From Candidatus Saccharimonadota bacterium (lineage in GTDB: Bacteria > Patescibacteriota > Microgenomatia > UBA1406 > GWC2-37-13), in assembly GCA_001790095.1 (NCBI GenBank), contig MGBH01000001.1, forward strand, positions 1,184,932 to 1,216,931: DNA of 32,000 nt, in the 5' to 3' direction. The notes under the pieces are model-generated. The model did not search any database, had not been told where the DNA came from, and was given only the letters and a program-made list of their open reading frames with translations. Of the stretch, positions 1 to 32,000 are shown piece after piece. The translations under genes were made by a program, and so were the position numbers. Positions within the stretch are counted from its first letter, which is position 1, and each line of letters starts with the position of its first letter.

Positions 1-1172
1 CAGAAATTAATTGTTTTGATGAAGGTTGGATTTTTTTGACATGACTGGCATCGAATTCCTCCACTGGGGATACATTGGGAAAATCCGTATTGATAACTAC
101 AGGAAAACTCAACGAAGTCTTTTGGATTAGCTGACCCAACGACAAACAAACATTGCATTTGTGTACATATGTCTGAAGGTTTTCCTCGCAATGTCGTCCA
201 TGATCCGTTGGCATTTCTCAGATAATCACATCCAAACTGAGTTGCTTTTGTTGCTCCCCCCGCAGCAGATTCCTCAATCCACAGCGATATGACGAAAAGC
301 GGATTAAAGTTATATTGTTTTGCCTTTTCTTGAACAAGCTCCCAATGATCAAGAAGCTTAGTGGATGTGAAATAGGTAGGATAAAATGTCCTCATTTTCT
401 CATATGCTTTTTTGATGACTGTTTCATCGACAGTACAGTTTGGATTACGATAGGGGATGGAGTAGTTCTTTGTCCCTGTGAAGTCAAATATTTGATTATT
501 TGTACGAGGGGTGTCTAGGTAGGGGTTGGGATAATGAATATTATATTCGGCTAGCTTTTCATCAAGTTCACGGCAGTCAGACGGGGGCGGCGGAGTCGGT
601 TCCCCGGTCGTTGTCATCACCGGCGGACGGATCATAAGACCAAACAAGGTAAACAGATCGGTAAGACCTTGTTCAGGGCTCTTGGTGACATAGGGAGTCT
701 GTACTTCCTCCATGGTCTTATCCGAGATGATGGTGGTCTTGATATTGTCTACAAGGCGAGGATATCCTTGAGTCTTTGCCCACTTAGCAAATGAGGCATC
801 AGCCTGAGGAGTCTTCCGGGTGACAACAAGCTTAGAGAGGTTGGGAGCATAGTCAAGGATAAAGTCCTCTTCTTCAAGAGGAAGAGAGAGGGAAGATTGT
901 ACTTCCTTCAGTGTTTGTTGTGCTTCCTGTTCTGTTTTCTGTTCTGCCTCTTTCCTTGCCTTCTGTTCTCTATCCTCCTCTACAAAAGAGGAGTTAGAAG
1001 AAGAGGAGGAAGAGAGAGATGAGGAGTATCTCTTATCTACTTGTACAGCTGTTGGAAAGGGAGAGGTTATCGAGGAGGACTCAGGCTTACTCTTTAGTAA
1101 AGATTGAATAAAAAATATACCTATCACAAGGATAAAGAGTATGGAAAGTGCAATGACAAGGTATTTTTTCAT
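1..1172 (-). CDS. Membrane-anchored secreted modular protein, paralog A (3' end lies beyond the window edge): shared N-terminal module plus its own Cys-rich C-terminal domain (possibly lysozyme/lytic-transglycosylase-like)
   Basis: Absent from the ORF track because there is no stop inside the window. Hand translation from ATG 1172: MKKYLVIALSILFILVIGIFFIQ (TM anchor), Ser run, EQKARKEAEQKTEQEAQQ linker, small domain, ...MIRPPVM. The unique part follows: TTTGEPTPPPPSDCRELDEKLAEY...QYNFNPLFVISLWIEESAAGGATKATQFGCDYL...IRCQSCQKNPTFIKTINF, open to base 3. Apart from the start-proximal codons, the first ~185 codons are nucleotide-identical to the 5' part of 30828..32000. TATAAT (1182-1187, minus) lies 9 nt upstream of the ATG. 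Confidence 0.8.
   Translation of the reverse strand, partial: MKKYLVIALSILFILVIGIFFIQSLLKSKPESSSITSPFPTAVQVDKRYSSSLSSSSSSNSSFVEEDREQKARKEAEQKTEQEAQQTLKEVQSSLSLPLEEEDFILDYAPNLSKLVVTRKTPQADASFAKWAKTQGYPRLVDNIKTTIISDKTMEEVQTPYVTKSPEQGLTDLFTLFGLMIRPPVMTTTGEPTPPPPSDCRELDEKLAEYNIHYPNPYLDTPRTNNQIFDFTGTKNYSIPYRNPNCTVDETVIKKAYEKMRTFYPTYFTSTKLLDHWELVQEKAKQYNFNPLFVISLWIEESAAGGATKATQFGCDYLRNANGSWTTLRGKPSDICTQMQCLFVVGSANPKDFVEFSCSYQYGFSQCIPSGGIRCQSCQKNPTFIKTINF
615..1169 (-). repeat. Copy A of a 555-bp intragenic direct repeat (partner 31422..31988)
   Basis: Compared by eye base by base. The offset is 30807 up to about 1060. Copy B then carries an extra 12 bp (tandem ggaaagggagtt), and the offset is 30819 to the end. 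I noticed no substitutions. Identity stops sharply at both ends (codon after PPVM; a few codons after the ATG). Confidence 0.9.
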
Positions 1173-5055: not shown

Positions 5056-5438
5056 TTAAGCACAGTCTTTGGCGCAGTCTTTTTACGCCATAATAGTACT
5101 GAGACGATGAGACCAAGTATAAACCCGCTTATACCACTAAGAAGTATATATATGGGTACAATTTTTTGTTTTTCTTGAGCTTTTTTGATGGCGTCTTGAA
5201 AGATGGTGTTAGTCTGTTGACAATTCTTAAGAGATACATCTTTTTCTTCACTTTTTTTCTTACATGCATCGAGTTCTTTTGTATCTTTTATGGGAATAGT
5301 TTTTTGTGGTAGTGTGAAATCATAATTAAGCTGTCCCGGGACTGCATAAACATACTTAAAAGTACATAAAAAAGTTAAACTGCATAAGAAAACAACAGCA
5401 CCCCATTTACTACTACACAAAGTCTTTTGGATCAGCAT
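5052..5438 (-). CDS. Hypothetical secreted/membrane protein (N-terminal hydrophobic signal, C-terminal TM)
   Basis: 128 aa. N-terminal [15 protein letters not shown] hydrophobic stretch and C-terminal [25 protein letters not shown] helix followed by RKK. ATG start with TATAAT 8 nt upstream. The 3' end overlaps the clpB stop by 4 nt. No recognisable family. Confidence 0.55.
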
Positions 5439-7265: not shown

Positions 7266-8363
7266 ATGAATGAGCACACACTTTGCCATATCGGATTTTC
7301 TCACTTTTATGGAATTGGTCCGGTAAAATTCGCCGCATTAAAGAATAGATTTGAGTCAGTAAAACATGCATATTATGCCACTACTCATGAATTAGAAACG
7401 GTACTTGGATCATTATGGGCGAAGCGATTTGTTGATTTTCGAAATCACATTGATCTAAACAAAAAGTGGGAAGAGTTCAACAAGAAAAAAATAACTGTTT
7501 TGACGATTGATGATGAATTTTACCCAACTTCTCTCAAAAATATTTCCGACGCACCTATTTGTATATATGTAAAAGGGAATATCAAAACAGTTGATCTAAG
7601 AGAGGGGAAATTATTTGGCATTGTGGGTACTCGTAGACCAACTTCATATGGTTGTCAGATTGCTCATACTTTTTCCTCAGAACTTGCAGATGCAGGCTTT
7701 GTTATTGTCTCTGGCCTTGCAATTGGAGTTGATACTATAGCTCATAAAGCCGCACTTCATGCGGGAAGCAAGACCATCGCGGTGCTTGGATGTGGGGTAG
7801 ATATCATTTACCCTCAATCGAATAGTTTCTTATATGAGAAAATTGTAGACAACGGAGGTCTTGTTATGTCTGAGTTTCCACCTGGTCTTATGGTGAAAAG
7901 AGGTTTGTTTATAGCAAGAAATCGTATTATCTCAGGTCTTTCCATGGGTGTTCTTGTTGTTGAGGGTACAAAAGACTCTGGAGCGCTTATTACCGCACGT
8001 TTTGCAGCACAACAAGGTAGGGAAGTGTTTGCACCACCGGTCCCTCTTACATCTATCATGTCAGAGGCGCCAAACATATTGCTTAAACAGGGGGCAATAT
8101 TTGTTACCCAAACGGAGGATATTCTAGATGAATTTGGAATAAAAAAATGGAAAAAAAATGAAGCGATAATATCAACGCTTTCTCCTTCAGAAAAAATAGT
8201 TGTTGAGATACTTTCCCTTGAACCGAAGTCTGTTGACGAATTATTACTTGAGATAAAAACTCCTATATCTCATCTTTCCTATACTTTATCGATTCTTGAG
8301 ATGGAGGGTATCATAAAAAAAGATGCGCAAAGCAAGTATCAACTGGCATCAATGGGTAAGTGA
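7266..8363 (+). CDS. dprA: DNA-processing protein DprA (Smf)
   Basis: GIVGTRRPTSYG, SGLAIGVDTIAHKAAL, AVLGCGVDIIYP, ARNRIISGLS, GALITARFAAQQGREVFA are DprA Rossmann-core motifs. A C-terminal winged-helix-like tail is present. Confidence 0.94.
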   Translation: MNEHTLCHIGFSHFYGIGPVKFAALKNRFESVKHAYYATTHELETVLGSLWAKRFVDFRNHIDLNKKWEEFNKKKITVLTIDDEFYPTSLKNISDAPICIYVKGNIKTVDLREGKLFGIVGTRRPTSYGCQIAHTFSSELADAGFVIVSGLAIGVDTIAHKAALHAGSKTIAVLGCGVDIIYPQSNSFLYEKIVDNGGLVMSEFPPGLMVKRGLFIARNRIISGLSMGVLVVEGTKDSGALITARFAAQQGREVFAPPVPLTSIMSEAPNILLKQGAIFVTQTEDILDEFGIKKWKKNEAIISTLSPSEKIVVEILSLEPKSVDELLLEIKTPISHLSYTLSILEMEGIIKKDAQSKYQLASMGK

Positions 8364-11025: not shown

Positions 11026-11502
11026 TTAAACTGTAAATACTGTCTGATACGCTTTTTTGGCAATATCGTATGAGAAGCCTCTTCTTAACAAAAATGATAC
11101 CGCTTTTTTAAAACGGGTTTTTGAATCAAGAGCAGCATATGTATTGATTCTACGACGAAGTACATCTTCTGCAAGGGTAAGATCCTCTGTTTGAGAGGTC
11201 GAAAAATATTCCTCAATAAGATCTTTTGCTATGCCAAGTTTTGCAAGTTCGTATCTCAAAAGAAATATACCCTTTGGTTTTAATAGGATACGGTTTTCTA
11301 CATACAATTCAACAAATTTTTTATCGTTGATAAATCCCTGTTCTTTTAGCGTTTCGATGGTCGTTTTTATGACGACCTCGCTAAAGTGAAAACGTATAGA
11401 TTTTTTTTCTAAATAACGAACAATTTCTTGTTCGGTACGGGGACGAAATTTGAGATAAAAATAGGCAAGACTCAAAGCTTTAGAAATCTGTTGTTGGTTC
11501 AT
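11026..11502 (-). CDS. recX: RecX-like regulatory protein
   Basis: Immediately follows recA with an ATGA stop/start overlap (11499-11502). 158-aa helical-repeat protein ([26 protein letters not shown]...), consistent with RecX. The call rests on family resemblance plus position. Confidence 0.8.
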
Positions 11503-12521
11503 TTCTTTACCGCGGTTTTTTCATGCACTGCTTTTGTGATATGATTTTTCAGTTTTTCATCAGATAAGAGTGTTTCTTTTACCTGTTCTTTACCCTGTCC
11601 AAGCATGCGGTCTTCAAAACGAATAAATGATCCACTTTTTGTAAGGACGCCGCTTGCGATAGCCGCATCGATTATTCCTTCTAATTTGTCAATTCCATCT
11701 CCGGTTATAGTAAACTCAGCGTCGCGAAATGGAGGAGCTATTTTATTTTTGACGATCTTTACCCGAACGCGTGTACCGTAGGGGATGTTGTTTTTTTTGA
11801 GTGTTTCAATTTTGCGGACATCCATTCGTACCGATGCATAGAATTTAAGAGCAAGTCCTCCTGAGGTTGTCTCAGGGTTGCCAAACATAATACCGATTTT
11901 CAGTCGAAGCTGATTGGTAAAAATGATGGTAGTTTTTGATTTAGAGACAATACCTGTTAATTTTCGAAGAGCTTGCGACATCAGTCTAGCTTGTAAACCC
12001 ATTTGGGCATCTCCCATCTCTCCCTCGATTTCAGCTTGTGGGACAAGGGCGGCGACTGAGTCTACAATGAGCAAATCTATTCCTCCTGAACGAATGAGTT
12101 GTTCAGTGATTTGAAGAGCCTGTTCACCCGTATCAGGCTGTGCAACAAGGAGATTCTCGACCTTTACTCCGATTTTACGTGCCCAAGCAGGATCAAGCGC
12201 GTGTTCGGCGTCAATGAACGCAACTACTCCATCATTTTTTTGTACTTCAGCAATAAGAGATAGACAAAGAGTTGTTTTTCCTGACGACTCTGGTCCGTAG
12301 ATCTCAATTATTCTTCCCTTCGGAATACCTCCGACACCAAGGGCAATATCAAGTGGTAAAATACCTGTCTTGATGACATCTATCGCGACTATGGGGTGAT
12401 CTCCCAGACGCATGATTGCTCCTTTTCCGAACTGTCTTTGTATTTGGTCAATCGCAAGATTAATTGCTTCGGTTTTTGGATTTTTTATATCTTTTGAATC
12501 GGTTTTTATATCTTTGCTCAT
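11499..12521 (-). CDS. recA: Recombinase RecA
   Basis: [12 protein letters not shown], Walker [20 protein letters not shown] and [23 protein letters not shown] motifs. The ORF track extends to a GTG at 12548. I prefer ATG 12521 (MSKDIKTD...) because a TACAAT -10-like box (12549-12554, minus) abuts the GTG. Confidence 0.95.
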
Positions 12522-12590
12522 ATAAAGTGATAATGAATTAATACCCACATTGTACTAGGTACTAAAGTAATGTCAATTGAAATATATACA

Positions 12591-14123
12591 TTAAAATTCT
12601 AACTCTTCTTTTATCCTATATTGTAATGCCTCCGCTATATGAGTTTGCTCGATGCTTTCTTGTTGAGCAAGATCTGATATGGTTTGGGCAACTTTTATTA
12701 TTTTAAAATATGACCTTGCAGATAAACATAGTTTAGATATAGCCTGTTTCAATAATTGAGTTGCTTCGTCTGTTAAGACACATAATTTTTTTATATCTCT
12801 TGGAGTCATCTCCCCATTCATCTTTATGCGTGGTGTTTGTAAAAACCGTTTTTTTTGCTGGAGGCGAGCTCTAAGTACACGATTTCGTATCGTCTCGCTT
12901 GACTCTCCGTTGATTTGAGACATGAGTTTTTCCTGTGACACAGGGGGAATATCTATATGGAGATCAATGCGGTCAAGAAGGGGGCCTGATAATTTTTTTT
13001 TGTATTTTAACACCGATCCAGGCATGCAACGACATTTTTTTGTCGGGTGTCCAAGGTATCCGCATTGACAAGGATTTGATGCAGCAAGAAGAAGAAATCG
13101 GCAAGGAAAAGTGAGGTTGCCTATTGCTCGCGATATTGAAATAGATCCATCCTCGAGCGGTTGTCGAAGTGACTCAAGCACTGATCTTGGGAATTCAGGA
13201 AATTCATCCAAAAAAAGAACTCCTCGGTGGGCAAGCGAGATTTCTCCTGGTCTTGGATTTGTTCCTCCTCCTATAAGCCCGATACGTGATGTTGTGTGGT
13301 GTGGACTCCTGAAGGGTCTTTGAACTATGAATCCGTGATTGCTTACAAGCCCAACGGCTGAGTACATCTTTGAGACATCCAGTATCTCATCTTTATCCAT
13401 AGGAGGAAGGATCGATGGGAATGCGCGAGAAAGCATAGTTTTACCGGCTCCGGGTACTCCTTTTAAATGGAGGTTGTGGAATCCAGCCGCAGCAATTTCA
13501 AGAACACGCTTAGCTTGATTTTGTCCTTTTATCTCTTCAAAATCAAACTCCCACATGGTTTGACACGTAAACGATTCAAGATCAACGTGAGGATGGGGGA
13601 GTATTGGTTTCTCCCCGCTTATATGCAGAACCAAATCTTCAATGTTTTTGAGCGGGAATACCGTAAGATTATCCATAATTGCGGCTTCTTTTGCATTTAG
13701 TGCGGGTACAAAAAGATGAGTGATCCCTTGCTTTTGTGCCATTGCAGCAATAGATATGATTCCAGATACTTCTCTTATTTTTCCTTCAAGAGATAGTTCG
13801 CCGATAAAAAGGGAATCTTTCAGAATATCTTTTTTAATCATACCCGATGCTGCTAATATGCCTACTGCGATTGGTAAGTCAAAACTCGCCCCTTCTTTTG
13901 GTATATCTGCTGGAGCCAAATTCACCGTAATACGTGAATCTGGCATCTCAAAGGAGGTATTAATTATTGCGGTTCTCACCCGGTCTTTTGCTTCTTCTAC
14001 GGCTTTATTTGGAAGACCGACCAAATTAAAAGTTGGGAATCCGCGGGAAGCTACGTCAACCTCAACTTCAATCAATACACCATCGAGTCCAATCGTAGTC
14101 CCTGACAATATTTTTGCGAGCAT
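12591..14123 (-). CDS. comM: YifB/ComM-family Mg-chelatase-like AAA+ ATPase
   Basis: N-terminal Lon/ChlI-like domain, Walker A GVPGAGKTML, Walker B VLFLDEFPEF, Cys cluster CQCGYLGHPTKKCRC and C-terminal Mg-chelatase tail; 510 aa. Confidence 0.92.
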   Translation of the reverse strand: MLAKILSGTTIGLDGVLIEVEVDVASRGFPTFNLVGLPNKAVEEAKDRVRTAIINTSFEMPDSRITVNLAPADIPKEGASFDLPIAVGILAASGMIKKDILKDSLFIGELSLEGKIREVSGIISIAAMAQKQGITHLFVPALNAKEAAIMDNLTVFPLKNIEDLVLHISGEKPILPHPHVDLESFTCQTMWEFDFEEIKGQNQAKRVLEIAAAGFHNLHLKGVPGAGKTMLSRAFPSILPPMDKDEILDVSKMYSAVGLVSNHGFIVQRPFRSPHHTTSRIGLIGGGTNPRPGEISLAHRGVLFLDEFPEFPRSVLESLRQPLEDGSISISRAIGNLTFPCRFLLLAASNPCQCGYLGHPTKKCRCMPGSVLKYKKKLSGPLLDRIDLHIDIPPVSQEKLMSQINGESSETIRNRVLRARLQQKKRFLQTPRIKMNGEMTPRDIKKLCVLTDEATQLLKQAISKLCLSARSYFKIIKVAQTISDLAQQESIEQTHIAEALQYRIKEELEF

Positions 14124-14232: not shown

Positions 14233-15975
14233 ATGAAGTTTGTTGAATTGGCTGCTTATTTTGAAAAGATTGAACATGTCTCTTCGCGTTTGACTATTAC
14301 CTCTCTTCTTGCCGAACTTTTTAATAAACTGTCTCCTGAAGAACTGGAGAAGACTGTGTATTTATTACAAGGAAAGGTGGTGCCTTCCTTCCAAAAAATT
14401 GAGTTTGGAATGGCAGAAAAAACGGTTATTAAGGCGATAGTTTTAGCTCTCAACATCGATAAATCTTATTTTGAGAAAGAATCAAAAAAAATGGGTGATT
14501 TAGGAAAAGCGGTTGAGTTCTTTAAAAAACAATTTATTTCATTCGAAGAAAAAGCTCTTACTATTCTTGATACACACAAAGAGCTGTATAAAATCGCTGT
14601 GGCAGGTGGAGACAAATCACAGGAGTATAAAATAAACTCTCTCTCTTTCCTTATTCGTCAACTTGATCCATTATCAACAAGATATTTAGTGAGGATTCCG
14701 CTTGCTTTGATGCGGTTAGGTTTTTCAGATATGACTGTTCTTGATGCATATTCTTGGATGATTGGGGGTGATAAGACTTTAAGACCTTTGATAGAACATG
14801 CATATCACGTGAGGCCTGATTTAGGATATATAGGGCGAATTTTAAAAGAAAAAGGCATTAAAGAAATGCAAAAAATTCAACCTGTCATATGTACTCCGAT
14901 TATTATGATGAGGGCTGAGCGGTTATCATCAGGTAAGGAGATCATTGACCAGATTGGAGAGTGTGCTATCGAACCAAAATATGATGGTTTCAGACTCCAA
15001 ATCCACTATAAAAAAGAAAACAATAAAGCGGAGGTGAGGCTTTTTTCAAGAAGTCTAGAAGATGTAACCTATATGTATCCGGATGTCATTGAAGGGGTAA
15101 AAAAACAGATTATTGCAAAAGAAATAATATTTGAGGGGGAGGCTATTGGATTTGATCCGACAACCGGAAGTTTTTTACCTTTTCAAGAGACAGTACAACG
15201 GAAACGAAAATATGACATCATACAAAAAGCAAAAGAAATACCGCTAAAACTTTTTTCATTTGATCTGCTTTACCTTAACGGTATAAATTATATTCATGAA
15301 CCATTTGTTGAAAGAAGAAAGCAGCTGGAAACAGTTATTCAGGCAAAAGGAGACGTCTTAAAAGACATCGTTGTTCTTGCGCCACACATTCTGATGAAAG
15401 ACCCTGTAAAAATAGAAAAGAACTTCGATACGGCAATTGCACAAGGACTTGAGGGGATAATCGCCAAAAAATTAAATGGCACATATCAACCAGGAGCCCG
15501 TGGTTGGAATTGGATCAAATTTAAACGTAGTTATTCTTCCAAAATCAATGATACAATCGATTGTTTAGTCATGGGATATGATTTTGGAAAAGGAAAAAGA
15601 ACAGATTTTGGTATTGGGGCATTTTTGGTTGGGATATTTGACAAGAGGCAAGAAAAATATGCTACTGTTGCCAAGATAGGAACAGGTTTAACTGATGAAG
15701 AATGGAGAACACTAGAATTAAGAAGTAAGAAATTGGAATCAAAGATAAAACCAGACAATTATTATGTAGATAAACAGATGGTATGTGATGTATGGATAAG
15801 TCCGTCTATCGTCGTTGAGATACGCGCCGATGAAATAACGAAATCACCAGTTCATACGGCAGGTTTAGCCTTAAGATTTCCGCGACTTGAACGGTTTCGT
15901 GATGATAAAAGAGAGACTGATACTACTACTTTATCAGAACTGAAGAAGATGCTTATTGAGCAAGAAAAGGTGTGA
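14233..15975 (+). CDS. lig: ATP-dependent DNA ligase, three-domain (DBD + adenylation + OB) Lig1/archaeal-like type
   Basis: Motif I EPKYDGFRLQIH (adenylated Lys), motif III FEGEAI, motif IV EGIIAKK, motif V WIKFKRSY. About 240 aa of N-terminal DNA-binding-domain-sized sequence precede motif I. Confidence 0.92.
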   Translation: MKFVELAAYFEKIEHVSSRLTITSLLAELFNKLSPEELEKTVYLLQGKVVPSFQKIEFGMAEKTVIKAIVLALNIDKSYFEKESKKMGDLGKAVEFFKKQFISFEEKALTILDTHKELYKIAVAGGDKSQEYKINSLSFLIRQLDPLSTRYLVRIPLALMRLGFSDMTVLDAYSWMIGGDKTLRPLIEHAYHVRPDLGYIGRILKEKGIKEMQKIQPVICTPIIMMRAERLSSGKEIIDQIGECAIEPKYDGFRLQIHYKKENNKAEVRLFSRSLEDVTYMYPDVIEGVKKQIIAKEIIFEGEAIGFDPTTGSFLPFQETVQRKRKYDIIQKAKEIPLKLFSFDLLYLNGINYIHEPFVERRKQLETVIQAKGDVLKDIVVLAPHILMKDPVKIEKNFDTAIAQGLEGIIAKKLNGTYQPGARGWNWIKFKRSYSSKINDTIDCLVMGYDFGKGKRTDFGIGAFLVGIFDKRQEKYATVAKIGTGLTDEEWRTLELRSKKLESKIKPDNYYVDKQMVCDVWISPSIVVEIRADEITKSPVHTAGLALRFPRLERFRDDKRETDTTTLSELKKMLIEQEKV

Positions 15976-23409: not shown

Positions 23410-23892
23410 ATGGATAAAACAACGGTGGTAAAAGCAGAGACAGAAGAACTATTAAAAAAATTAGTGGAAGCATACACTTTAGAAGTAAACGAACAGGAAG
23501 GCGCATTTCAGATCATTATCAAGACTGAAGAAGCTCCAACTATAATCGGACGCCACGGAGAGACCATACGAGCGATCCAAAAGATACTTGAAGTTATCTT
23601 ATATAAAAAACTTCAAGAATCAGTACATGTCCTTATCAATGTAAATGATTATCGTGAAAAACAGCAGGAAAGGCTTGAGTACATGGCTTCTCAATACGCA
23701 GATAAAGTCAACGAGTCCCGCCAACCTGAAAATGTGTTTCACCTTTCCTCATATGAAAGGCGGATTATTCACCAATATATAACTTCAAACTATCCTGATC
23801 TTGCAAGCTACTCAGTTGGAGAAGGACGTGACCGCAAACTTGTGATAGACTTGAAAGAGAATGCACCCAAAACAGAAAGCACAGAAGTTTAA
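23410..23892 (+). CDS. jag: Jag/KhpB-like RNA-binding protein (KH + R3H)
   Basis: KH-like IIGRHGETIRAIQKILE and R3H ERRIIHQYITSNYPDLASYSVGEGRDRKLVI. It sits in the classical position downstream of yidC. Confidence 0.88.
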   Translation: MDKTTVVKAETEELLKKLVEAYTLEVNEQEGAFQIIIKTEEAPTIIGRHGETIRAIQKILEVILYKKLQESVHVLINVNDYREKQQERLEYMASQYADKVNESRQPENVFHLSSYERRIIHQYITSNYPDLASYSVGEGRDRKLVIDLKENAPKTESTEV

Positions 23893-24095
23893 TCCGATAT
23901 TTATTCTTTTCCTTCCTGCGATATTTGTATTTGACGTTGTATATTATATGTATACTCGGTCTACCTGTTTTCAATGTGGAAATATGGGTGAATTTATCAA
24001 GACTTCTTCCCTCACTTTTTACACTTTAAATCAAACCGTACAGATGCTTTTCGCTAAAAAAGTCACAAAGTAGATGGTGTAATTCTGCTCAAGAA

Positions 24096-24104
24096 TGCTA
24101 CAAT
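24096..24104 (+). promoter_or_regulatory. Extended -10 element TGcTACAAT, 6 nt upstream of the ATG of the 1224-aa gene (leaderless-type arrangement)
   Basis: TGCTACAAT at 24096-24104, ATG at 24111. No purine-rich SD lies between them (atatacct). Confidence 0.45.
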
Positions 24105-24110
24105 ATACCT

Positions 24111-27100
24111 ATGGCAGCAACAAACCCGGAACATCATACAGGAGCACCGACAGAAAACGACACATTAAAAGCTGAGGTAGCAAGACAGTCCGCATCACAG
24201 CTCGTTGATGAAGTAAAGAAGATAGGAAAGATGGCCGGTGAAGTCAAACGCGCCGTGGATGCTTCAGTTGATGCTGCAAGAAAGGCTCCTGACACGTTTG
24301 AAGGAGACAAACAAGATAAAGATACTGCACGAGGTCGAGCTCACAGCGTGCAACGAACAGTAAAAAAAATCTTAATGGCAGCAAGATTCCCTGATAAATT
24401 AAAGCCAATCCCTGGAGAGGACGCACAAAGAGAAGTCGTGACACCGATCGCTTCTTCACTTCTCAAACAGTTAAGTAGTCGCATTGATCCGGAATATGAT
24501 GTATCAGAACAGACAGCCCCTTATCTACATCAAATCATAGATAAGGTACTTAGCGGAGGGATAGCAAACGCTGATGATCTGAAAATTGAGCTTGATAAGC
24601 TAAACAACCTTAAGCTTGTGAATCCGGACCTGTATAAAGAGGTACAGGAATCATTTGTTGAGGTCGCAAAAGATACAGGAGTGAGTGAAAAAGATGCAAA
24701 ACAGAAATTTAATGTTGAAGAGCCACCTGTAGAACAAACCCAACCCACGCCTGACAAACCAGCAGACCTGCCACCGCAAGAATTAACACCTGATCAACAA
24801 CGGGAACTTATGAATAAAGCAAGAGAAATGCAGGCGAGAGAGATGCATGGAGAAGGTAGAACTGAGTTTGATGCTTCATGGGGGCGTTATTTTTCTGATT
24901 ATTTTTCTGTATCAGACCAACCCCTTTTAAAAGCCATCTTTGACCCTGAAGAATTTAAATCATATGTTGAGACTGCTAAAGAAGAGGTTGCAAGACAGTT
25001 GGGATTGGCAAAAACCGATGATGATGTTGGAAAAAAGGTATCAAAAGATATAGAGCGGGGTGTGGTTGAACTATTTGGTAAGCTATATACACGACTTGAC
25101 CATGAACGGGCAAGTGAATTCTTTGAGCAGATAGAACAACAAGACGTAATGTCAGGTATCTTGCCTGCTAAAAATGCACTGAAGCGGCGACTGGAGAAGT
25201 TGGCAACAGCTCTTCACCATGATGGAGATTTGGGTTTATTTAAAGATGGAGAGATAAAGTCTGAGAATTCAGATATACCTTTTAAAGACAAAGAGGGGAA
25301 AGTAAGACTTAAACCACGACTTCTTATCCATCCATATCCTGAAGCAAAAAGGGCATCGACCTCAGACTTCATACACTATCTTGATTTAAAGATTGACACA
25401 TATATTGATACGCGCAAATATACTCACGATGCGCGAGCTATTTTTTTACATCCAGTTGATCCAGAAAAAGGTTTTTATTCACAACTTGCCCGTTTTGCCG
25501 AACAGATGACGACCGTTGATTTTGATCAAATGTTTCTGCTTCCTGATGCCGACATCTTTCAAAGCGCACTTCTGCTTTATGATAAACATGTTGATGAGAT
25601 GTTTGCAAAAAATGATTGGCGTCATGCTCCGACCATGTTTCAACCAAAATCAGGAAGTCATCGAAATCAGCTAGAAGAAGACGTATTGCATAGATTAAAA
25701 CAAATGTATGGAAAAGATGTGAGTGATGCTCGACTTGATGCCGCCGTCACCATGGCTGTTGGAGCATCAAGAGGAATGTTTTTGACAGAGATAGAAAAAG
25801 CGGCTTTTGCCGATCCGCATGTAAATGAAGATGGAAGCATAACGTATGCGAGCTATTACAATAATGACACTTCAGCTCTTAACGCTTTTAATCCTATGCA
25901 TACGTTTTTGCGCTTTCAGGGAGTCAGAAGCACAGATCCTATCTTATTTATGCCTGTTGAAGGAGATAAATTTCAAGGATCAGTCTTTACTGATCATCGA
26001 ACTATGTGGAAAAACATGATGGCATATAAGGATGCATTTATAAGCGGTCGGAAAGGTGCCGGTTTAAAAGAAGGAGAGGTATTGTTTGCAGACTACCTTA
26101 TGAATATCGGAAAAGTAGGAGGTCCTATGGAGCGGAAAGGTTGGAGAACTACCTACATATTACAACCTCTTTATTATAAGGATAAAAAGGGTATAACAGA
26201 GGGAGAACAAACAAGTGAAATTTTTGATCATGTACATACGTGGCAAAGATTTGAAAATATCGGTTATGAGATAGCACAAGACTTTGTTACAAAACTGAAG
26301 CCTGATTTTAAGGGGGCATATGCAGGAGGCGCGGGTTTAGCAAACGAACGATACGTAGACCAAAAAAAGGCACTTTTTAGCTACATATTTGACAGATATT
26401 TTACTGATCAGAAAGACACAACAACAGTAGATGCATATTTAAAAAACATTAGAAAAAACGCTGAGGCGGAAGTATGGAGAAGTATCAAGGAAGGCAAGGC
26501 GCCAGCTCCAAATGATGTAAGGGCAGAGATAGAGTCTCATGTCACTATGACATTTCTTAACCGGACTCTTTCTCGCTTGGTAGCTCAACGAATTCCCTCT
26601 AAAATCCTTCGGATAGATCGTGACCGGATGAGTGAAGCTGGAAAAAGCAGATGGCGTACCATCGCTGAGGAGATGTTTCCTGAAAAGGAGGTTGGAGATA
26701 AACAATCTGAGAAGTTTGACATGGTAATAAAAGATCTTCTTTTCGCTGAACAACTGCTTAGATCTGAAGTAAGCGCAAAGATGAGAGAGATAAAAAAACT
26801 ACCCGAAAGTGAACACTGGAAGTTTGGCCATATTTCATATGAACTAACCCAAGAGACTGCAAGAGCTTTGCTTGCTGCAAAAGGATTTGATCAGGCACAG
26901 ATAGATAAAGTATGTACTCTTCTTGGCAAGATCGAGACTCATTTTACCCATAATACGAATTTCTTGGATAAGACACTTCTTAAATTTGTACAAGCAGGGG
27001 ATACTATTGTTAAAGAATACAAATTTACATTTGGACTTGAAGAGCTTGATATGAGTTTTATCCCGTGGAGAGCTGCCGGAAACAGGATGTTACCGCGTGC

Positions 27101-27785
27101 AATAGGAGACATATCGGTTACAGAAAAAGCAGTCGCAGGAGAAATCATGAAGCTACCCGCGACTTTGAACAAGATAGCGATAGATGGTAAGCACGACTTT
27201 TCTCCTATCCTTGAAATCTGTGAAAAAGTGTACGGCTCCATGGAGGGTATCATCGGTCCTGATTATGCTCACAGACTAGTACATCACATAGCAGCAACTA
27301 CTATAAACTATTTTAAAAAAGATACGGTAGCCAGGTGGGCACATGGATTATTTGGTATAGGACGGAGAAACTCTCTTGCAGCGGAGCGAGCAGGAGGAAG
27401 TTCAAGAGTATGGGAATGGGATAGTACTGATATAGATCGTTTTTGTGTTGCACTTGAATCAAGAAGTGTTCTGCCAAATAGCAGTAGAAATCCATCGAAT
27501 CCAAAGCCTGAGTATGCTCCTATTTATATCAATCGGCACTTTTTTGGAAAACCAATCAAACTTCCCATGGAAATCAAAATGTTTGGAAGATCTATTCCAC
27601 TTTTTAGGAAGCGCAAACCTGACTTTGCATGGACTATAAAGAATTTACGTGATAAATTTGGAGGAAATTGGAAAGATATCGCTTTCGATATGGTAAACAA
27701 ATACATACCATTTGTTATTGCATGGCTATTATTAAAATATATAAAAGATGCACTCGATGAATCAGAAGGAAAAAAGAAAAAATAG
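24111..27785 (+). CDS. Giant orphan protein (1224 aa), no signal peptide, short hydrophobic segment near the C-terminus
   Basis: Uninterrupted 3.7-kb ORF with an ATG start. Charged, Ala-rich N-terminal ~200 aa, then a Pro-rich linker (EEPPVEQTQPTPDKPADLPPQELTPDQQ), then ~950 aa of aromatic-rich globular-looking sequence, ending in YIPFVIAWLLLKYI + DALDESEGKKKK. I found no Walker A or other motif I recognise. Confidence 0.8.
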   Translation: MAATNPEHHTGAPTENDTLKAEVARQSASQLVDEVKKIGKMAGEVKRAVDASVDAARKAPDTFEGDKQDKDTARGRAHSVQRTVKKILMAARFPDKLKPIPGEDAQREVVTPIASSLLKQLSSRIDPEYDVSEQTAPYLHQIIDKVLSGGIANADDLKIELDKLNNLKLVNPDLYKEVQESFVEVAKDTGVSEKDAKQKFNVEEPPVEQTQPTPDKPADLPPQELTPDQQRELMNKAREMQAREMHGEGRTEFDASWGRYFSDYFSVSDQPLLKAIFDPEEFKSYVETAKEEVARQLGLAKTDDDVGKKVSKDIERGVVELFGKLYTRLDHERASEFFEQIEQQDVMSGILPAKNALKRRLEKLATALHHDGDLGLFKDGEIKSENSDIPFKDKEGKVRLKPRLLIHPYPEAKRASTSDFIHYLDLKIDTYIDTRKYTHDARAIFLHPVDPEKGFYSQLARFAEQMTTVDFDQMFLLPDADIFQSALLLYDKHVDEMFAKNDWRHAPTMFQPKSGSHRNQLEEDVLHRLKQMYGKDVSDARLDAAVTMAVGASRGMFLTEIEKAAFADPHVNEDGSITYASYYNNDTSALNAFNPMHTFLRFQGVRSTDPILFMPVEGDKFQGSVFTDHRTMWKNMMAYKDAFISGRKGAGLKEGEVLFADYLMNIGKVGGPMERKGWRTTYILQPLYYKDKKGITEGEQTSEIFDHVHTWQRFENIGYEIAQDFVTKLKPDFKGAYAGGAGLANERYVDQKKALFSYIFDRYFTDQKDTTTVDAYLKNIRKNAEAEVWRSIKEGKAPAPNDVRAEIESHVTMTFLNRTLSRLVAQRIPSKILRIDRDRMSEAGKSRWRTIAEEMFPEKEVGDKQSEKFDMVIKDLLFAEQLLRSEVSAKMREIKKLPESEHWKFGHISYELTQETARALLAAKGFDQAQIDKVCTLLGKIETHFTHNTNFLDKTLLKFVQAGDTIVKEYKFTFGLEELDMSFIPWRAAGNRMLPRAIGDISVTEKAVAGEIMKLPATLNKIAIDGKHDFSPILEICEKVYGSMEGIIGPDYAHRLVHHIAATTINYFKKDTVARWAHGLFGIGRRNSLAAERAGGSSRVWEWDSTDIDRFCVALESRSVLPNSSRNPSNPKPEYAPIYINRHFFGKPIKLPMEIKMFGRSIPLFRKRKPDFAWTIKNLRDKFGGNWKDIAFDMVNKYIPFVIAWLLLKYIKDALDESEGKKKK

Positions 27786-27808
27786 TATTAATCCTGTATG
27801 ATATAAGT

Positions 27809-28588
27809 ATGATACGGAACATAACATTAATTAGCATTTTTTGTTTGTTTTTTCTTCTAAAATCAAACGTTTTAGCACAGTCTCCTACTTCAAGCTGTCC
27901 AGGGTTTAATGGAGGACCAGAACCACTGATGTTGGGTGTTAACTGTGGCGTAATAAACAGTAGTAATCCCTGTAGTGCGAAATGTTGTGCCGAACAACCC
28001 TTTTCAGTACACGCGTCAATACCTGGAATATTTAATGTTCTTCCTGGTGCTCAAGATGTTGTTGATGATTTTTTGAGAGACAAATTAAATCCAATACTTG
28101 AATATAAAAGGCAGGTTACTATGCAACCGTGTATCAATATGGGTAGTCCTACTACCCCCGGAGATCTTTCAAATGCAGCCTGTGTTTGTTTAGAACCTAC
28201 TCCAGCCACCTTATCTGCAATACTTAATTTGTGTCAGAATATAAAAAATACAAATGAGAGAGATGCATGTAATAATTGTTTGCAAGGAAATACTTCTGAC
28301 CGTAAGGTAGGTGTATGGACGGGTATCGGTTGTGTATATAGTGATATAAATGGATTTATTCAACATACTCTTTTAGGTTGGGGTATAGGGTTGGCTGGGG
28401 GAATATCTATGCTATGTATCCTCTATGCGGCTTTCATGATGCAAACATCCAGAGGTAATGCAGAGGTGGTAAAAAAAGCTCAACAACTCATGACTTCATG
28501 CATAACAGGTCTTATGCTTATTATATTTTCAGTATTCATACTCAGATTAATTGGAATCACAATCCTAAGAATACCCGGATTTAACTAA
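27809..28588 (+). CDS. Secreted Cys-rich protein ending in a VirB2/TrbC-like (T4SS-pilin-like) two-helix hairpin
   Basis: Signal peptide MIRNITLISIFCLFFLLKSNVLA|QS and an ectodomain with 12 Cys. The C-terminus is GWGIGLAGGISMLCILYAAFMMQTSRGNAEVVKKAQQLMTSCITGLMLIIFSVFILRLIGITILRIPGFN. That is, helix - short polar loop (S-R-G-N-x-E-x-V-K-K-A) - helix, the topology of TrbC/VirB2-type pilins. The family assignment comes from memory of that pattern, not from a search. Confidence 0.7.
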   Translation: MIRNITLISIFCLFFLLKSNVLAQSPTSSCPGFNGGPEPLMLGVNCGVINSSNPCSAKCCAEQPFSVHASIPGIFNVLPGAQDVVDDFLRDKLNPILEYKRQVTMQPCINMGSPTTPGDLSNAACVCLEPTPATLSAILNLCQNIKNTNERDACNNCLQGNTSDRKVGVWTGIGCVYSDINGFIQHTLLGWGIGLAGGISMLCILYAAFMMQTSRGNAEVVKKAQQLMTSCITGLMLIIFSVFILRLIGITILRIPGFN

Positions 28589-28596
28589 GTTGAAGT

Positions 28597-30333
28597 TTAT
28601 TTTTTCTCTCCTTGTTCAGTGGGATTATCCGATTTAGCTTTATATCGAGCCGTATCAGGCGCAGGCATTCCGCTTGTTCCTATCATCTGACCAATTGTTT
28701 TACCAGTAATCGCACTGAGACCCATACTTAAAGTACTTATTTGGCCAACCAAGCTCAGTCCTCCACCAGCCGCAGAACCTGCGCCTCCAAAGAATGTCCC
28801 TAAGCCAAGATTTATTGGAAGAGGCTTTATGCCGAGTGAATCCTTAACTAGTTTTACAAGATCAGGTATCATAAACATTATTCCTAACCCCAACAGTGTT
28901 GAAAATGCCAAAGGATCAATGCCTAGCAAAAAGGGTGGAAACCAGAAGTCGCCAGGATAGGCAAGAGAGTTCATAATGACGTTTCCAACAAGAAACACAG
29001 TAATAATCACAGGAAAAGTAAGTAATTCAGCGAGAAGATTCTTAAACCAAGTAGTAAAACCGGACTTTCCAGGTATTGCATCAATAAGAATAAAAAGTGG
29101 AGCGGTTACGATTAAAAATAATATTTGAAGATATGCACGAAACAACATAAAAAACACACGAAATACCAGAGCAATAATAGTAAAATAGATAACTAGTCCT
29201 ATGATGACTCCGGCACCATATAACATAAGATATGCAAATATTGCAGCAAAAAGAGTCGTTGAACCAACAGACAATAAAGTACTACCAACAAGTTTTCCTA
29301 AATTTATTCCAAATGTGGCAGCCTCAGCACCCATGTTATCAACTAATTCCATGACTTTAAAAGGATATGTGAGAAGTATTGAGAAATCTTTTATTAAAAA
29401 AAAGCCTGCAAATGCTCCACTCACTAATCTAAACACATTATTTACATATGTTGGAAATAGAGTCATAAAGGCAGTTCCAACATCAGTGATAGTTCCAAGA
29501 AATACATCACCTGAGATCCCAGTTAAGTTTTTTCTAATTGGTTGGAAAGAAAGATATATGTTCCAGGGCGTTGCTGATAAATATTCATTTTGCATACTAC
29601 CTACATCGTAATTGGCGCCTCCATTACTTAAAATTGATATTATTATTGCGATTAATATATACATTAGATCAATCAAGAACCCGGCAATTGCAAAGGAAAA
29701 AGTTATAAGCAGAAGTGAAGTTACGATCTTGGGAAGTGCATTCTCAACAGAAATGACTGTTTGAGGATTAATTTTCGTACGAAACATAATCATGAAACCA
29801 ATTGAAACAAGGATAATGACAAGGATAAGATATGCGATATCCCTAAATATTTTCCATACATTCATAAGAGGCTTTATTGCTCCAAATCCCATACCTTCAG
29901 ACGCATATGATTTGGGTACAAATCCAGCATCTTGAAGATTGGTATATACCCAGTATATGCCTGATGCAGGTGGGTTCGCAAAAGGTATAGTGATAAGTTT
30001 AGAGAGATATCCTGAAACACTTTTTGAGACGTTTTTATCACCATCACTAGGATTATCTGTACATGCTTCACCGCTAAAAAAACAGGTATGCATGCGATAG
30101 ATAAAAAGAGCGATTTTACCACTCTTCTTAGCATTAAGCTCCTTATTATTAAGCGCTTTATAAATCTGTTTTCTTGCCAGTTGAGTGACATTTTTTGGAT
30201 TGTATTGTGGTTTATTTTTAGAGAAAAATGAAGCAAAAATCCCAATAATAAAAGCGTAGACTATAAGTACAATTATAGCTTTTTTGCCAAAATTAAAACA
30301 TGAACGAAATAACTGTTTTACCATCGGTATCAT
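28597..30333 (-). CDS. Polytopic membrane protein with Gly-rich C-terminal tail, possibly VirB6/TrbL-like
   Basis: 578 aa. N-terminal anchor, ~110-aa extracytoplasmic segment, then at least 8 hydrophobic helices (e.g. IAYLILVIILVSIGFMIMF, SLLLITFSFAIAGFLIDLMYILIAIIISIL, VIIGLVIYFTIIALVFRVFFMLF). The tail is GLGTFFGGAGSAAGGGLSLVGQ... It is the last gene of the minus-strand operon, 13 nt after the 159-aa ORF. Confidence 0.65.
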   Translation of the reverse strand: MIPMVKQLFRSCFNFGKKAIIVLIVYAFIIGIFASFFSKNKPQYNPKNVTQLARKQIYKALNNKELNAKKSGKIALFIYRMHTCFFSGEACTDNPSDGDKNVSKSVSGYLSKLITIPFANPPASGIYWVYTNLQDAGFVPKSYASEGMGFGAIKPLMNVWKIFRDIAYLILVIILVSIGFMIMFRTKINPQTVISVENALPKIVTSLLLITFSFAIAGFLIDLMYILIAIIISILSNGGANYDVGSMQNEYLSATPWNIYLSFQPIRKNLTGISGDVFLGTITDVGTAFMTLFPTYVNNVFRLVSGAFAGFFLIKDFSILLTYPFKVMELVDNMGAEAATFGINLGKLVGSTLLSVGSTTLFAAIFAYLMLYGAGVIIGLVIYFTIIALVFRVFFMLFRAYLQILFLIVTAPLFILIDAIPGKSGFTTWFKNLLAELLTFPVIITVFLVGNVIMNSLAYPGDFWFPPFLLGIDPLAFSTLLGLGIMFMIPDLVKLVKDSLGIKPLPINLGLGTFFGGAGSAAGGGLSLVGQISTLSMGLSAITGKTIGQMIGTSGMPAPDTARYKAKSDNPTEQGEKK

Positions 30334-30346
30334 ATTTTATTCTACA

Positions 30347-30826
30347 TCATTTAAACCCAAATCTATCCAGCGGAATATTTGGGTAATTAGTATTAAGCCA
30401 CAGATCAAAGTCTTTTTTGTTAATATCCTTTGGCTCTTTAAGGGTAACGATAAAAATATCATTTGCATAGTCAAACGTAATGGTAAAAGAATCTTCGCTA
30501 AGGGGAGTTTTTTGTCGAAGCTCCCTTTTTTGGACAGCAAGATCAGTTTCTTCTTGAGGGATGTTTTGTTTTTCAAGTCCGCCGGTAAAGGTGGGGGCAA
30601 GGGGGGGAAGGGTTGGGAACGTATCGGGTCCCTGAGGTTCTTCATGAGGCGTAATATTAAGTTCTAACGGTTGTTTTGGTTCAATGAGTGTTGGAAGAGG
30701 AAGCTTAGTAGGTTTAGGTTGGGATGGAGTTTGTTTTTTTGTCTGTGGTATGAAAAGGATGATCACTATCAAAACAAGAAGAAATATAAAGGGAACGACG
30801 TAATAGAGTTTTATGTTTGAGTTCAT
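30347..30826 (-). CDS. Small anchored Pro-rich protein carrying the same ~45-aa domain as the shared module of the two paralogs
   Basis: 159 aa. TM anchor VVPFIFLLVLIVIILFI, a Pro-rich linker, then PLSEDSFTITFDYANDIFIVTLKEPKDINKKDFDLWLNTNYPNI. This aligns with PLEEEDFILDYAPNLSKLVVTRKTPQADASFAKWAKTQGYPRL of the 390-aa protein. It starts 1 nt after the upstream stop. Confidence 0.7.
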   Translation of the reverse strand: MNSNIKLYYVVPFIFLLVLIVIILFIPQTKKQTPSQPKPTKLPLPTLIEPKQPLELNITPHEEPQGPDTFPTLPPLAPTFTGGLEKQNIPQEETDLAVQKRELRQKTPLSEDSFTITFDYANDIFIVTLKEPKDINKKDFDLWLNTNYPNIPLDRFGFK

Positions 30827-30827
30827 A

Positions 30828-32000
30828 TTATTTTTTTACTCCAAAAGCTGCGATATATTTAGGAAATGGATAACGACTATTTTCATTTATGGGTGGAGTA
30901 GAGTTTTTACCATAGTAGGGGTCAAAAGCGTATATGTTGCCCTCCTCATCTATATCAGTGATCCAGAAATAATGTCCGCACCCGGCTTCACAATAACTTG
31001 CAAGTGCAAATATGGTCCACCCATTGTCTAAGTATGATCTAAAATCATCAATCACATCCTCCGCAATATATTTTGTAGCACTATAGGGGAGTATATAATC
31101 TGATGTTTTTACTCCATGACTACTTAAAGTTCCCTTAGCTACACCAAGACCTGTGCCACAACCTGCACCACCCACTGATTTATATATATCTACCACCTCA
31201 GGGGGAGTGTATTTTGTATCGATAAAGCTTGAAAGGATCATAGCAACAGTCGTTGGGCCACATCCGCCTCTGCAAATACTGCAGCTTTCAGTCAGCGGAT
31301 AATCATCATATGGTCCATCACATTGGGGATAGTAAATATATCCTCCATATGATTTAGGAGAAGAAGAACTGGAAGAACTTTTTGGTTTTTCCGTCACCCT
31401 CGGAGTCACTCCTCCCGTAACCATCACCGGCGGACGGATCATAAGACCAAACAAGGTAAACAGATCGGTAAGACCTTGTTCAGGGCTCTTGGTGACATAG
31501 GGAGTCTGTACTTCCTCCATGGTCTTATCCGAGATGATGGTGGTCTTGATATTGTCTACAAGGCGAGGATATCCTTGAGTCTTTGCCCACTTAGCAAATG
31601 AGGCATCAGCCTGAGGAGTCTTCCGGGTGACAACAAGCTTAGAGAGGTTGGGAGCATAGTCAAGGATAAAGTCCTCTTCTTCAAGAGGAAGAGAGAGGGA
31701 AGATTGTACTTCCTTCAGTGTTTGTTGTGCTTCCTGTTCTGTTTTCTGTTCTGCCTCTTTCCTTGCCTTCTGTTCTCTATCCTCCTCTACAAAAGAGGAG
31801 TTAGAAGAAGAGGAGGAAGAGAGAGATGAGGAGTATCTCTTATCTACTTGTACAGCTGTTGGAAAGGGAGTTGGAAAGGGAGAGGTTATCGAGGAGGACT
31901 CAGGCTTACTCTTTAGTAAAGATTGAATAAAAAATATACCTATCACAAGGATAAAGAGTATGGAAAGTGCAATGACAAGGTATTTTTTTGAGTTATTCAT
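30828..32000 (-). CDS. Membrane-anchored secreted modular protein, paralog B: shared N-terminal module + papain-fold Peptidase_C39-like cysteine peptidase domain
   Basis: 390 aa; the ATG is the last three bases of the window. The N-terminal ~190 aa are shared with paralog A. The C-terminal domain has CSICRGGCGPTTVAMILSSF (nucleophile Cys in a C-G-P-T context as in C39-like peptidases), CGHYFWITDID (His) and AFDPYYG (Asp/Asn candidate). Confidence 0.75.
   Translation of the reverse strand: MNNSKKYLVIALSILFILVIGIFFIQSLLKSKPESSSITSPFPTPFPTAVQVDKRYSSSLSSSSSSNSSFVEEDREQKARKEAEQKTEQEAQQTLKEVQSSLSLPLEEEDFILDYAPNLSKLVVTRKTPQADASFAKWAKTQGYPRLVDNIKTTIISDKTMEEVQTPYVTKSPEQGLTDLFTLFGLMIRPPVMVTGGVTPRVTEKPKSSSSSSSPKSYGGYIYYPQCDGPYDDYPLTESCSICRGGCGPTTVAMILSSFIDTKYTPPEVVDIYKSVGGAGCGTGLGVAKGTLSSHGVKTSDYILPYSATKYIAEDVIDDFRSYLDNGWTIFALASYCEAGCGHYFWITDIDEEGNIYAFDPYYGKNSTPPINENSRYPFPKYIAAFGVKK
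31422..31988 (-). repeat. Copy B of the intragenic direct repeat (partner 615..1169), 567 bp because of a 12-bp tandem duplication
   Basis: Identical by eye to copy A except for gttggaaagggagttggaaagggag (about 31858-31884) versus gttggaaagggag in copy A. This gives PFPTPFPT versus PFPT. Confidence 0.9.

Follow-up and report, generated by a model that had tools for sequence, protein, structure and literature searches.

The 32-kb window analysed here (one stretch of 32,000 nucleotides) is the final 32 kb of a 1.217-Mb contig (1,216,931 bp) of Candidatus Roizmanbacteria, a member of the class Microgenomatia in the Candidate Phyla Radiation (CPR). It ends in a cluster of envelope genes, which raises the question of whether a surface apparatus resembling a type IV secretion system (T4SS) is encoded there and, if so, what would drive it. 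A first-pass annotation, made from the letters of the window, had described five genes with T4SS-like parts and no motor ATPase, built around a 1224-aa orphan protein, and had supposed a CPR cell as the source, which the origin of the contig bears out. The reading preferred here, which is given about an even chance, is that the locus represents the origin-proximal envelope half of a Patescibacteria-type T4SS-like surface apparatus of Roizmanbacteria, with its VirB4 gene unlinked. This kind of system has already been described (PMC12102498, PMC12857230), and the cluster is a lineage-specific variant of it and not a new class.

The open reading frames (ORFs) were called again and the intergenic gaps were taken from the ORF coordinates. 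Membrane segments and the Walker A pattern [AG]xxxxGK[ST] were searched for in all five proteins by using a hydropathy and motif script. On the plus strand, the gene of the 1224-aa protein (24111..27785) is followed after 23 nt by that of a 259-aa exported pilin-like protein (27809..28588). These two converge, across 8 nt, on three minus-strand genes, which encode a 578-aa polytopic membrane protein (28597..30333), a 159-aa N-anchored protein (30347..30826, 13 nt from the 578-aa gene) and a 390-aa N-anchored Peptidase_C39_2 protein (30828..32000, 1 nt from the 159-aa gene), respectively. The five coordinates, strands and gaps are those given by the first-pass annotation, hydropathy shows signal, anchor or multi-transmembrane features in the 259-, 578-, 159- and 390-aa products, in agreement with the four of five products that it had counted, and the absence of Walker A was reproduced by the motif script, with zero matches in the five proteins.

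Conservation was determined by taking one genome per species, which gave 80 loci, essentially all from Roizmanbacteria or Microgenomates, followed by ORF and family analysis; the counts given below use the loci with enough sequence. Conservation of the gene neighbourhood, proposed earlier as a check, was found: the pilin-like gene adjoins the 578-aa gene in convergent orientation in 71/75 loci (median spacing at the convergent junction, 15 nt) and the 1224-aa gene lies next to the pilin-like gene in 56/58 loci (median spacing, 18.5 nt). The trio of 1224-aa, pilin-like and 578-aa genes is kept in about 95% of the 80 species loci. Because conserved homologues stand in the same order in dozens of species, the five ORFs are regarded as real genes and not as chance frames. 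In three loci (L048, L057 and L080) all three genes of the trio are flipped together with respect to jag, and the 159-aa and C39 genes stay beside a Clp ATPase gene; since this inversion is independent of jag, the trio is considered to act as a unit. Many of the metagenome-assembled genomes (MAGs) bearing the loci are titled 'uncultured Gammaproteobacteria bacterium' in the public record (L015, L018, L027, L028, L032, L033, L035 and others). These titles come from binchicken and SRP co-assemblies; the locus is clearly of Roizmanbacteria type, and the titles look like a labelling error.

The domain by which the cluster is most directly tied to T4SS lies in the 259-aa protein, which shows hydrophobic segments at residues 1-19 (signal-like), 187-205 and 235-253 by hydropathy. 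The protein alone scored below threshold against PF18895 (15.1 bits and E 0.025 for residues 188-247, the cut-off being 26.6) and gave 16.8 bits (cut-off 40, E 0.004) against NCBIfam NF045849 (Mbov_0395 pilin-like); some of its orthologues bear a precomputed 'weak' PF18895 match. The short 105-aa pilin family of the neighbourhood exceeds the PF18895 gathering score with 33-36 bits. When the 72-member family of the 259-aa protein was aligned with the 44-member short pilin family by HHalign, residues 178-248 (28340..28552, plus strand) were matched with a probability of 98.6% (E 7e-16). Because this profile-profile match is to PF18895-positive pilins, the identity of the hairpin is regarded as settled, and the VirB2-like hairpin supposed in the first-pass annotation is, by profile comparison, a genuine VirB2/T4SS_pilin hairpin. 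Between the signal peptide and the hairpin, a head of ~150 aa carries 10 invariant cysteines, and each hairpin helix of the family carries one additional invariant Cys. The length of 259 aa exceeds the usual pilin size (about 70-120 aa, with little beyond the hairpin), and the Cys-rich head could be the host-contact part of the protein.

The identity of the hydrolase domain is likewise directly supported. The 390-aa protein matched PF13529 with 29.4 bits (cut-off 24) over residues 222-362 (30915..31337, minus strand), which covers profile positions 4-143 of 143, and the catalytic residues Q226, C247 (100%), H343 (100%) and D360 are kept in 29 homologues. No SLT domain, the canonical VirB1 fold, was detected in it with Pfam. 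Its anchor/linker/small-domain module (residues 1-145) is joined through a Ser-rich linker to a papain-type head at the C-terminus, and the protein is, to judge from its domain content, a probable peptidoglycan peptidase. The 159-aa protein comprises one N-terminal anchor, a Pro-rich linker and a small domain with the conserved residues F118-D119-Y120...W143...N147-Y148-P149. By HHalign it matched the first ~145 residues of the 390-aa family (probability 99.0%, E 2.6e-18), and its module also matched the SLT-like family f18 (97.2%) and the family f24 (96.5%). On these profile matches, the 159-aa protein is read as a stand-alone form of a module that otherwise carries hydrolase heads.

The genes of this module fill a slot between the 578-aa gene and the Clp gene. 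The C39_2 gene together with the 159-aa gene is the commonest arrangement across species; in other species the slot contains Peptidase_M15_4 (52 bits) on a homologous N-terminal module, or between one and four SLT-like genes, whose products show a GPMQF motif and match Pfam below threshold (E 1.4e-3). A hydrolase family occupies the slot in 35/60 loci, and the 159-aa module or f24 occupies it in 37/60. The slot is read as one for wall opening because hydrolase heads are swapped in it between species, which is the best evidence for this function. With the Q/C/H/D residues kept and M15_4 or SLT-type proteins at the same place elsewhere, the VirB1-like wall-opening role, for which a papain-fold peptidase had been put forward, is plausibly filled by the 390-aa protein, by analogy.

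The 578-aa protein has at least 8 hydrophobic segments by hydropathy, and long helices in its AlphaFold2 (AF2) model (predicted local distance difference test (pLDDT) 75.4, predicted template-modelling score (pTM) 0.58). Its family shows a ~125-aa extracytoplasmic region, invariant Cys84 and Cys91, many invariant loop residues and, at the C-terminus, a tail rich in Gly. More than 1,098 homologues at ~45% identity were found, zero of them with a Pfam domain; the protein itself matched nothing in Pfam or NCBIfam, and the family gave no links to PDB sequences, PADLOC or PHROG. In a Foldseek search of the model against 350,542 PDB chains, ranks 1-4 were TrwI/VirB6 of R388 (probability up to 0.84) and rank 5 was DotA of Legionella, another T4SS protein. 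It is a reasonable hypothesis, rather than an assignment of membership, that the protein is a divergent VirB6-like platform or channel candidate, as these model-based matches would suggest.

The largest protein of the cluster, called an orphan in the first-pass annotation, is one no longer with respect to relatives. The initial search gave 21 close homologues and a word-indexed search with the alignment gave the same 21, and exhaustive hmmsearch widened the family to 263 representative clusters at 50% identity, 172 of them at E<=1e-30. The members are nearly all full length (1150-1300 aa). The term still holds with respect to known families: zero matches of the 1224-aa family were found in Pfam, NCBIfam, PDB-sequence profiles, PADLOC and PHROG, and HHalign of the family against VirB4 gave no match. 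The N-terminal ~240 aa are charged and less conserved, the core is conserved and mostly helical, and many charged and His residues are invariant. The C-terminus shows a weak short hydrophobic helix followed by a conserved GKKK tail, with no strong transmembrane segment. The AF2 model of residues 241-1224 is confident (pLDDT 79.9, pTM 0.83) and mostly helical, and nothing significant was found with it by Foldseek against PDB (best E 0.17, template-modelling score (TM-score) ~0.1) or against BFVD. Since a signal peptide is lacking, the protein is predicted to be cytoplasmic and membrane-tethered.

A probable sixth member of the cluster was overlooked in the first-pass annotation. The gene of a 70-aa single-pass membrane protein (23861..24073, plus strand; called in the NCBI record) overlaps jag at the latter's end, and 37 nt separate it from the 1224-aa gene downstream. 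Its family (35 ORFs across the fetched loci) has an invariant CxxC and the pattern LP..FD..Y..TR..C..C..EF..SL in 31 aligned members, and the 70-aa protein gave no match in Pfam, PADLOC or PHROG. The 1224-aa and 70-aa proteins are two uncharacterised families without known counterpart.

The absence of a motor ATPase, as first annotated, stands for the five genes, none of which encodes a P-loop motor, and does not stand for the wider neighbourhood nor, probably, for the genome. The contig stops exactly at base 32000, on the start codon of the 390-aa gene; the true continuation was seen in a 626-kb JGI contig of a near-identical strain (L095). There, divergent from the C39 gene, a 1240-aa protein with Clp_N/AAA/AAA_2/ClpB_D2-small domains (L095:4569-8291, minus strand) is followed by a 60-aa protein, a 227-aa protein and a 105-aa PF18895 pilin, and then by an AA_kinase-methyltransferase fusion and a 344-aa SMC_N/AAA_23 protein, which is taken for RecF on account of its size and its Walker A motif. 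Because the gene of this Clp/Hsp100 AAA+ ATPase lies directly beyond the 390-aa gene, the lack of a motor in the window is explained in part by where the window ends. In 38/44 loci the Clp gene lies within reach of the 578-aa gene. With homologues in L008, L012-L014 and L101, the ATPase is atypical, and its sequence features set it apart from an ordinary ClpC: a Pro-rich stretch of ~120 aa extends its N-terminus, its C-terminus carries a CxxC..CxxC motif, and D2 contains an insert of ~255 aa made of 3-4 tandem repeats of ~45 aa with the pattern F-SP-G-E...W...DYF, and its length varies between species from about 900 to 1760 aa. A plain 713-aa second Clp ATPase is encoded in the same genome. 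An intein as the cause of the long Clp was ruled out, the insert being tandem repeats without splice-junction features.

Downstream of Clp, the 227-aa polytopic protein (L095:3705-4388, minus strand) contains HExxH and weakly matches Peptidase_M50B, and from this motif it could be a pilin-processing protease. Its gene and the start of the canonical 105-aa PF18895 pilin gene (L095:3391-3708, minus strand) overlap by 4 nt in most species, and the f16, m222 and pilin genes downstream of Clp show mostly -4 nt overlaps. A canonical PF18895 pilin gene is located ~7 kb from the cluster, in the same neighbourhood.

For VirB4 itself, published data were used. In Table S1 of PMC12102498, GCA_001790045.1, which was taken here as the source assembly, is entered as 'Presence of VirB4: Yes', and 9/13 of the cluster-bearing genomes cross-checked in the same table are VirB4-positive. 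Since the survey scores the assembly as VirB4-positive, the motor is probably unlinked rather than absent; VirB4 appears to be usually present and not linked to the cluster. The T4SS of Patescibacteria is related to the monoderm MPF_FATA class, with VirB4, TrsD, PrgI/VirB3, VirB6 and arrays of VirB2-like pilins, and its genes are often near the origin (dnaA, rpmH), usually without a relaxase (PMC12102498). In Microgenomatia, VirB2-like pilin arrays are abundant, VirB3 is mostly unlinked to virB4 and many components are likewise unlinked, and VirB6 is 'scarce', which the authors ascribed to divergence (PMC12102498). In Southlakia epibionticum (Saccharibacteria), the one species tested, the T4SS and the pilin array are essential for epibiotic growth (PMC12857230), and the function of the Patescibacteria T4SS-like systems has been described as completely unknown (PMC11665869, PMC12857230).

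From these parts we infer the following arrangement, including the physical contacts and the energy source. The anchored hydrolase would open the wall locally, and the 578-aa protein would form a membrane platform that lodges pilin-type subunits, which would be presented or polymerised there. The 1224-aa protein may dock from the cytoplasmic side and serve as scaffold or as coupling factor. The system would be powered by a VirB4 whose gene lies elsewhere, by the adjacent Clp-type AAA+ ATPase, or by the two together. Such an apparatus would probably serve host contact or exchange in an epibiotic lifestyle.

Several observations weigh against a T4SS-like apparatus. VirB4, VirD4, VirB3 and VirB8 were not recognised within ~10 kb in any of the loci (0/80), Pfam scans of the genes upstream in the window (~24 kb) gave no VirB4, VirD4, VirB3, VirB8 or PilB, and in the relative L101 no VirB4-like ORF and no VirD4, VirB3 or VirB8 were recognised within 10 kb past recF; the adjacent VirB4 or VirD4 that the first-pass annotation had suggested looking for was therefore not found, and a Clp-type ATPase stands past the edge instead. 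VirB4 is scored 'No' in 4/13 cluster-bearing MAGs (PMC12102498 table), which may be incomplete. The VirB6-like character of the 578-aa protein, as first proposed, gained the top four fold matches and no support from sequence: the fold matches are non-significant (E 0.19-0.84 for the four TrwI/VirB6 chains and 0.19-0.95 with DotA included, TM-score 0.3-0.36), Pfam TrbL (PF04610) was found in 0/43 family members even at E<=10, and HHalign of the family against Agrobacterium VirB6 gave a probability of 0.1%, with a single-sequence target of low sensitivity, tblastn of this VirB6 on plasmids having returned only Rhizobiaceae-type homologues. No sequence or structure link leads from the 1224-aa protein to any T4SS component. 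The whole region of ~25 kb (ligase, GT2, DUF2298, ValRS, YidC, Jag and the cluster) is syntenic across the clade, and because of this clade-wide synteny, a functional link is only weakly supported by the order of the genes alone.

Synteny of this extent also fits a rather unlikely, though substantial, alternative, namely a general module for envelope biogenesis or surface proteins that is unrelated to secretion and whose genes stand together through regional synteny only. The hairpin would then merely anchor a Cys-rich surface protein, the 578-aa protein would be its transporter or assembly factor, the 1224-aa protein a cytoplasmic enzyme or scaffold, and the hydrolases would remodel the wall for growth or division. 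Such a module agrees with the constant position of the cluster beside rpmH-yidC-jag, with the pilin hairpin as the sole sequence-level T4SS signal, with the lack of a nearby VirB4 and the VirB4-negative MAGs, and with the invariant charged and His residues of the 1224-aa protein, which could indicate an enzyme. It accords poorly, however, with the inversion of the trio as a block independent of jag, with best fold matches of the 578-aa protein to VirB6 and DotA and not to transporters, and with the second, canonical T4SS pilin conserved in the neighbourhood; moreover, monoderm T4SS loci typically encode anchored modular hydrolases beside a protein that resembles a channel (PMC12102498).

The frequent proximity of Clp to the 578-aa gene bears on another explanation, which is considered improbable: a self-contained, VirB4-independent pilin-handling machine powered by the Clp/Hsp100 AAA+ ATPase, possibly with the 1224-aa protein. 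The co-operonic arrangement of Clp with a small transmembrane protein, an HExxH membrane protease-like protein and a short pilin points in this direction, as do the atypical build of this Clp in a genome that holds a second, plain one and the cluster-bearing MAGs in which VirB4 was undetected. We know of no case in which pilin extraction or secretion is driven by a Clp-type unfoldase, which speaks against such a machine; Clp is, besides, transcribed away from the slot genes and could simply be a chaperone of the usual kind in a syntenic block, and VirB4 is present in most of the cluster-bearing genomes (9/13). Its most specific version, in which the Clp unfoldase (with the D2 repeats and C-terminal zinc ribbon) and the 1224-aa protein would replace VirB4/VirB11 and the HExxH protease would mature the pilins, is very doubtful. 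A mobile-element remnant (an integrative and conjugative element (ICE), a conjugative plasmid or a prophage) or an anti-phage defence island is largely refuted and hardly credible. Conjugative elements are the source of T4SS-type pilins and of VirB6-like proteins, and the VirB4 clade of Patescibacteria has its relatives in MPF_FATA, a monoderm class of conjugation systems (PMC12102498). The cluster nevertheless occupies the same chromosomal position in 80 species and has a GC content like that of its flanks. No relaxase, integrase or tRNA boundary was found in Pfam scans of the window, no Rfam family reached the gathering score anywhere in the 32 kb, no relatives occur on IMG/VR viral contigs, and PADLOC and PHROG gave no match.

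The break of the contig at base 32000 is probably due to a repeat of ~580 bp (~600-1172 against 31430-32000), and the alternative join of SOD to C39 in the short metagenomic contig L097 is probably due to the same repeat. The 5' half of the 390-aa gene recurs almost unchanged (600..1172, minus strand; 97% amino-acid identity over 190 residues by BLASTP) at the head of a paralogue (3-1172, minus strand) that adjoins SOD, diverges after 190 residues and exits the window start. Its divergent C-terminal part contains zero Pfam domains, and the repeat looks like a recent duplication or gene conversion that placed the adaptor module onto another head.

The upstream genes of the window are housekeeping ones: SOD, TrmD, the 713-aa Clp ATPase, DprA, RpiB, RNase Y, RecX, RecA and ComM, then, before the cluster, an ATP-dependent ligase, two GT2, DUF2298, ValRS, L34, YidC and Jag. 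Genes for DNA uptake and recombination are bunched among them (DprA, 7266-8363; RecX, 11026-11502; RecA, 11499-12548; ComM/Mg-chelatase-like, 12591-14123), with the ATP-dependent DNA ligase (14233-15975) after them. Two ORFs of 128 aa (5052-5438, minus strand) and 570 aa (5463-7175, plus strand) are without a Pfam match and keep their place beside the 713-aa Clp gene in L097. A scan for promoters and terminators was uninformative, promoter-like sites being rarer than in shuffled sequence.

If read as the envelope half of a T4SS-like apparatus, the cluster supplies a concrete candidate for the VirB6 missing from the surveys of Microgenomatia and adds a headed pilin, a swappable wall-hydrolase cassette and two uncharacterised families. 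Neither the unusual Clp ATPase nor the two new families would be picked up by T4SS surveys that work with profiles. If the links hold, the parts list would become longer for a system central to the life of a very large uncultivated bacterial group; a Clp/1224-aa engine without VirB4 would, if true, define a novel class of systems for secretion or surface filaments.

Compared with known systems, the components differ from their nearest counterparts in distinct ways. Like VirB6/TrbL (TrwI of R388, PDB 7O3V and 8RTD), its top fold match, the 578-aa protein is polytopic and alpha-helical, and its gene stands beside a VirB2-type pilin gene, whereas it is double the length of TrwI or VirB6 and its gene has no adjoining VirB4, VirB5 or VirB8. 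The hydrolases of monoderm conjugation systems (PrgK of pCF10, TcpG and CwlT), functional analogues of VirB1 with cysteine-peptidase and/or lytic-transglycosylase heads, share with the Roizmanbacteria proteins an anchored, modular and locus-encoded build; the Roizmanbacteria proteins, in contrast, are single-headed, with C39_2, M15_4 and SLT-like heads swapped between species, and their adaptor module is clade-specific and also exists alone as the 159-aa protein. The Mycoplasma ICE pilin-like protein (NF045849) likewise has a two-helix hairpin, matches weakly and belongs to a wall-less/monoderm lineage, but it is of ~80 aa and ICE-borne, whereas the Roizmanbacteria protein is of 259 aa and chromosomal.

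The closest known system is the Patescibacteria T4SS-like one (the Southlakia epibionticum locus, Wang et al. 2023; Quinonero-Coronel et al. 2025, PMC12102498). Shared with it are the monoderm CPR host, the origin-proximal position (rpmH, yidC), PF18895 pilins, the lack of a relaxase, a polytopic VirB6-like candidate and hydrolases of peptidase or lysozyme type that replace the canonical VirB1. The Roizmanbacteria cluster differs in having no VirB4, TrsD or PrgI/VirB3 in it or nearby, a VirB6 candidate that is not recognisable by sequence and an adjoining ATPase of Clp type, and to the known system it adds the 10-Cys headed pilin and the 1224-aa and 70-aa families.

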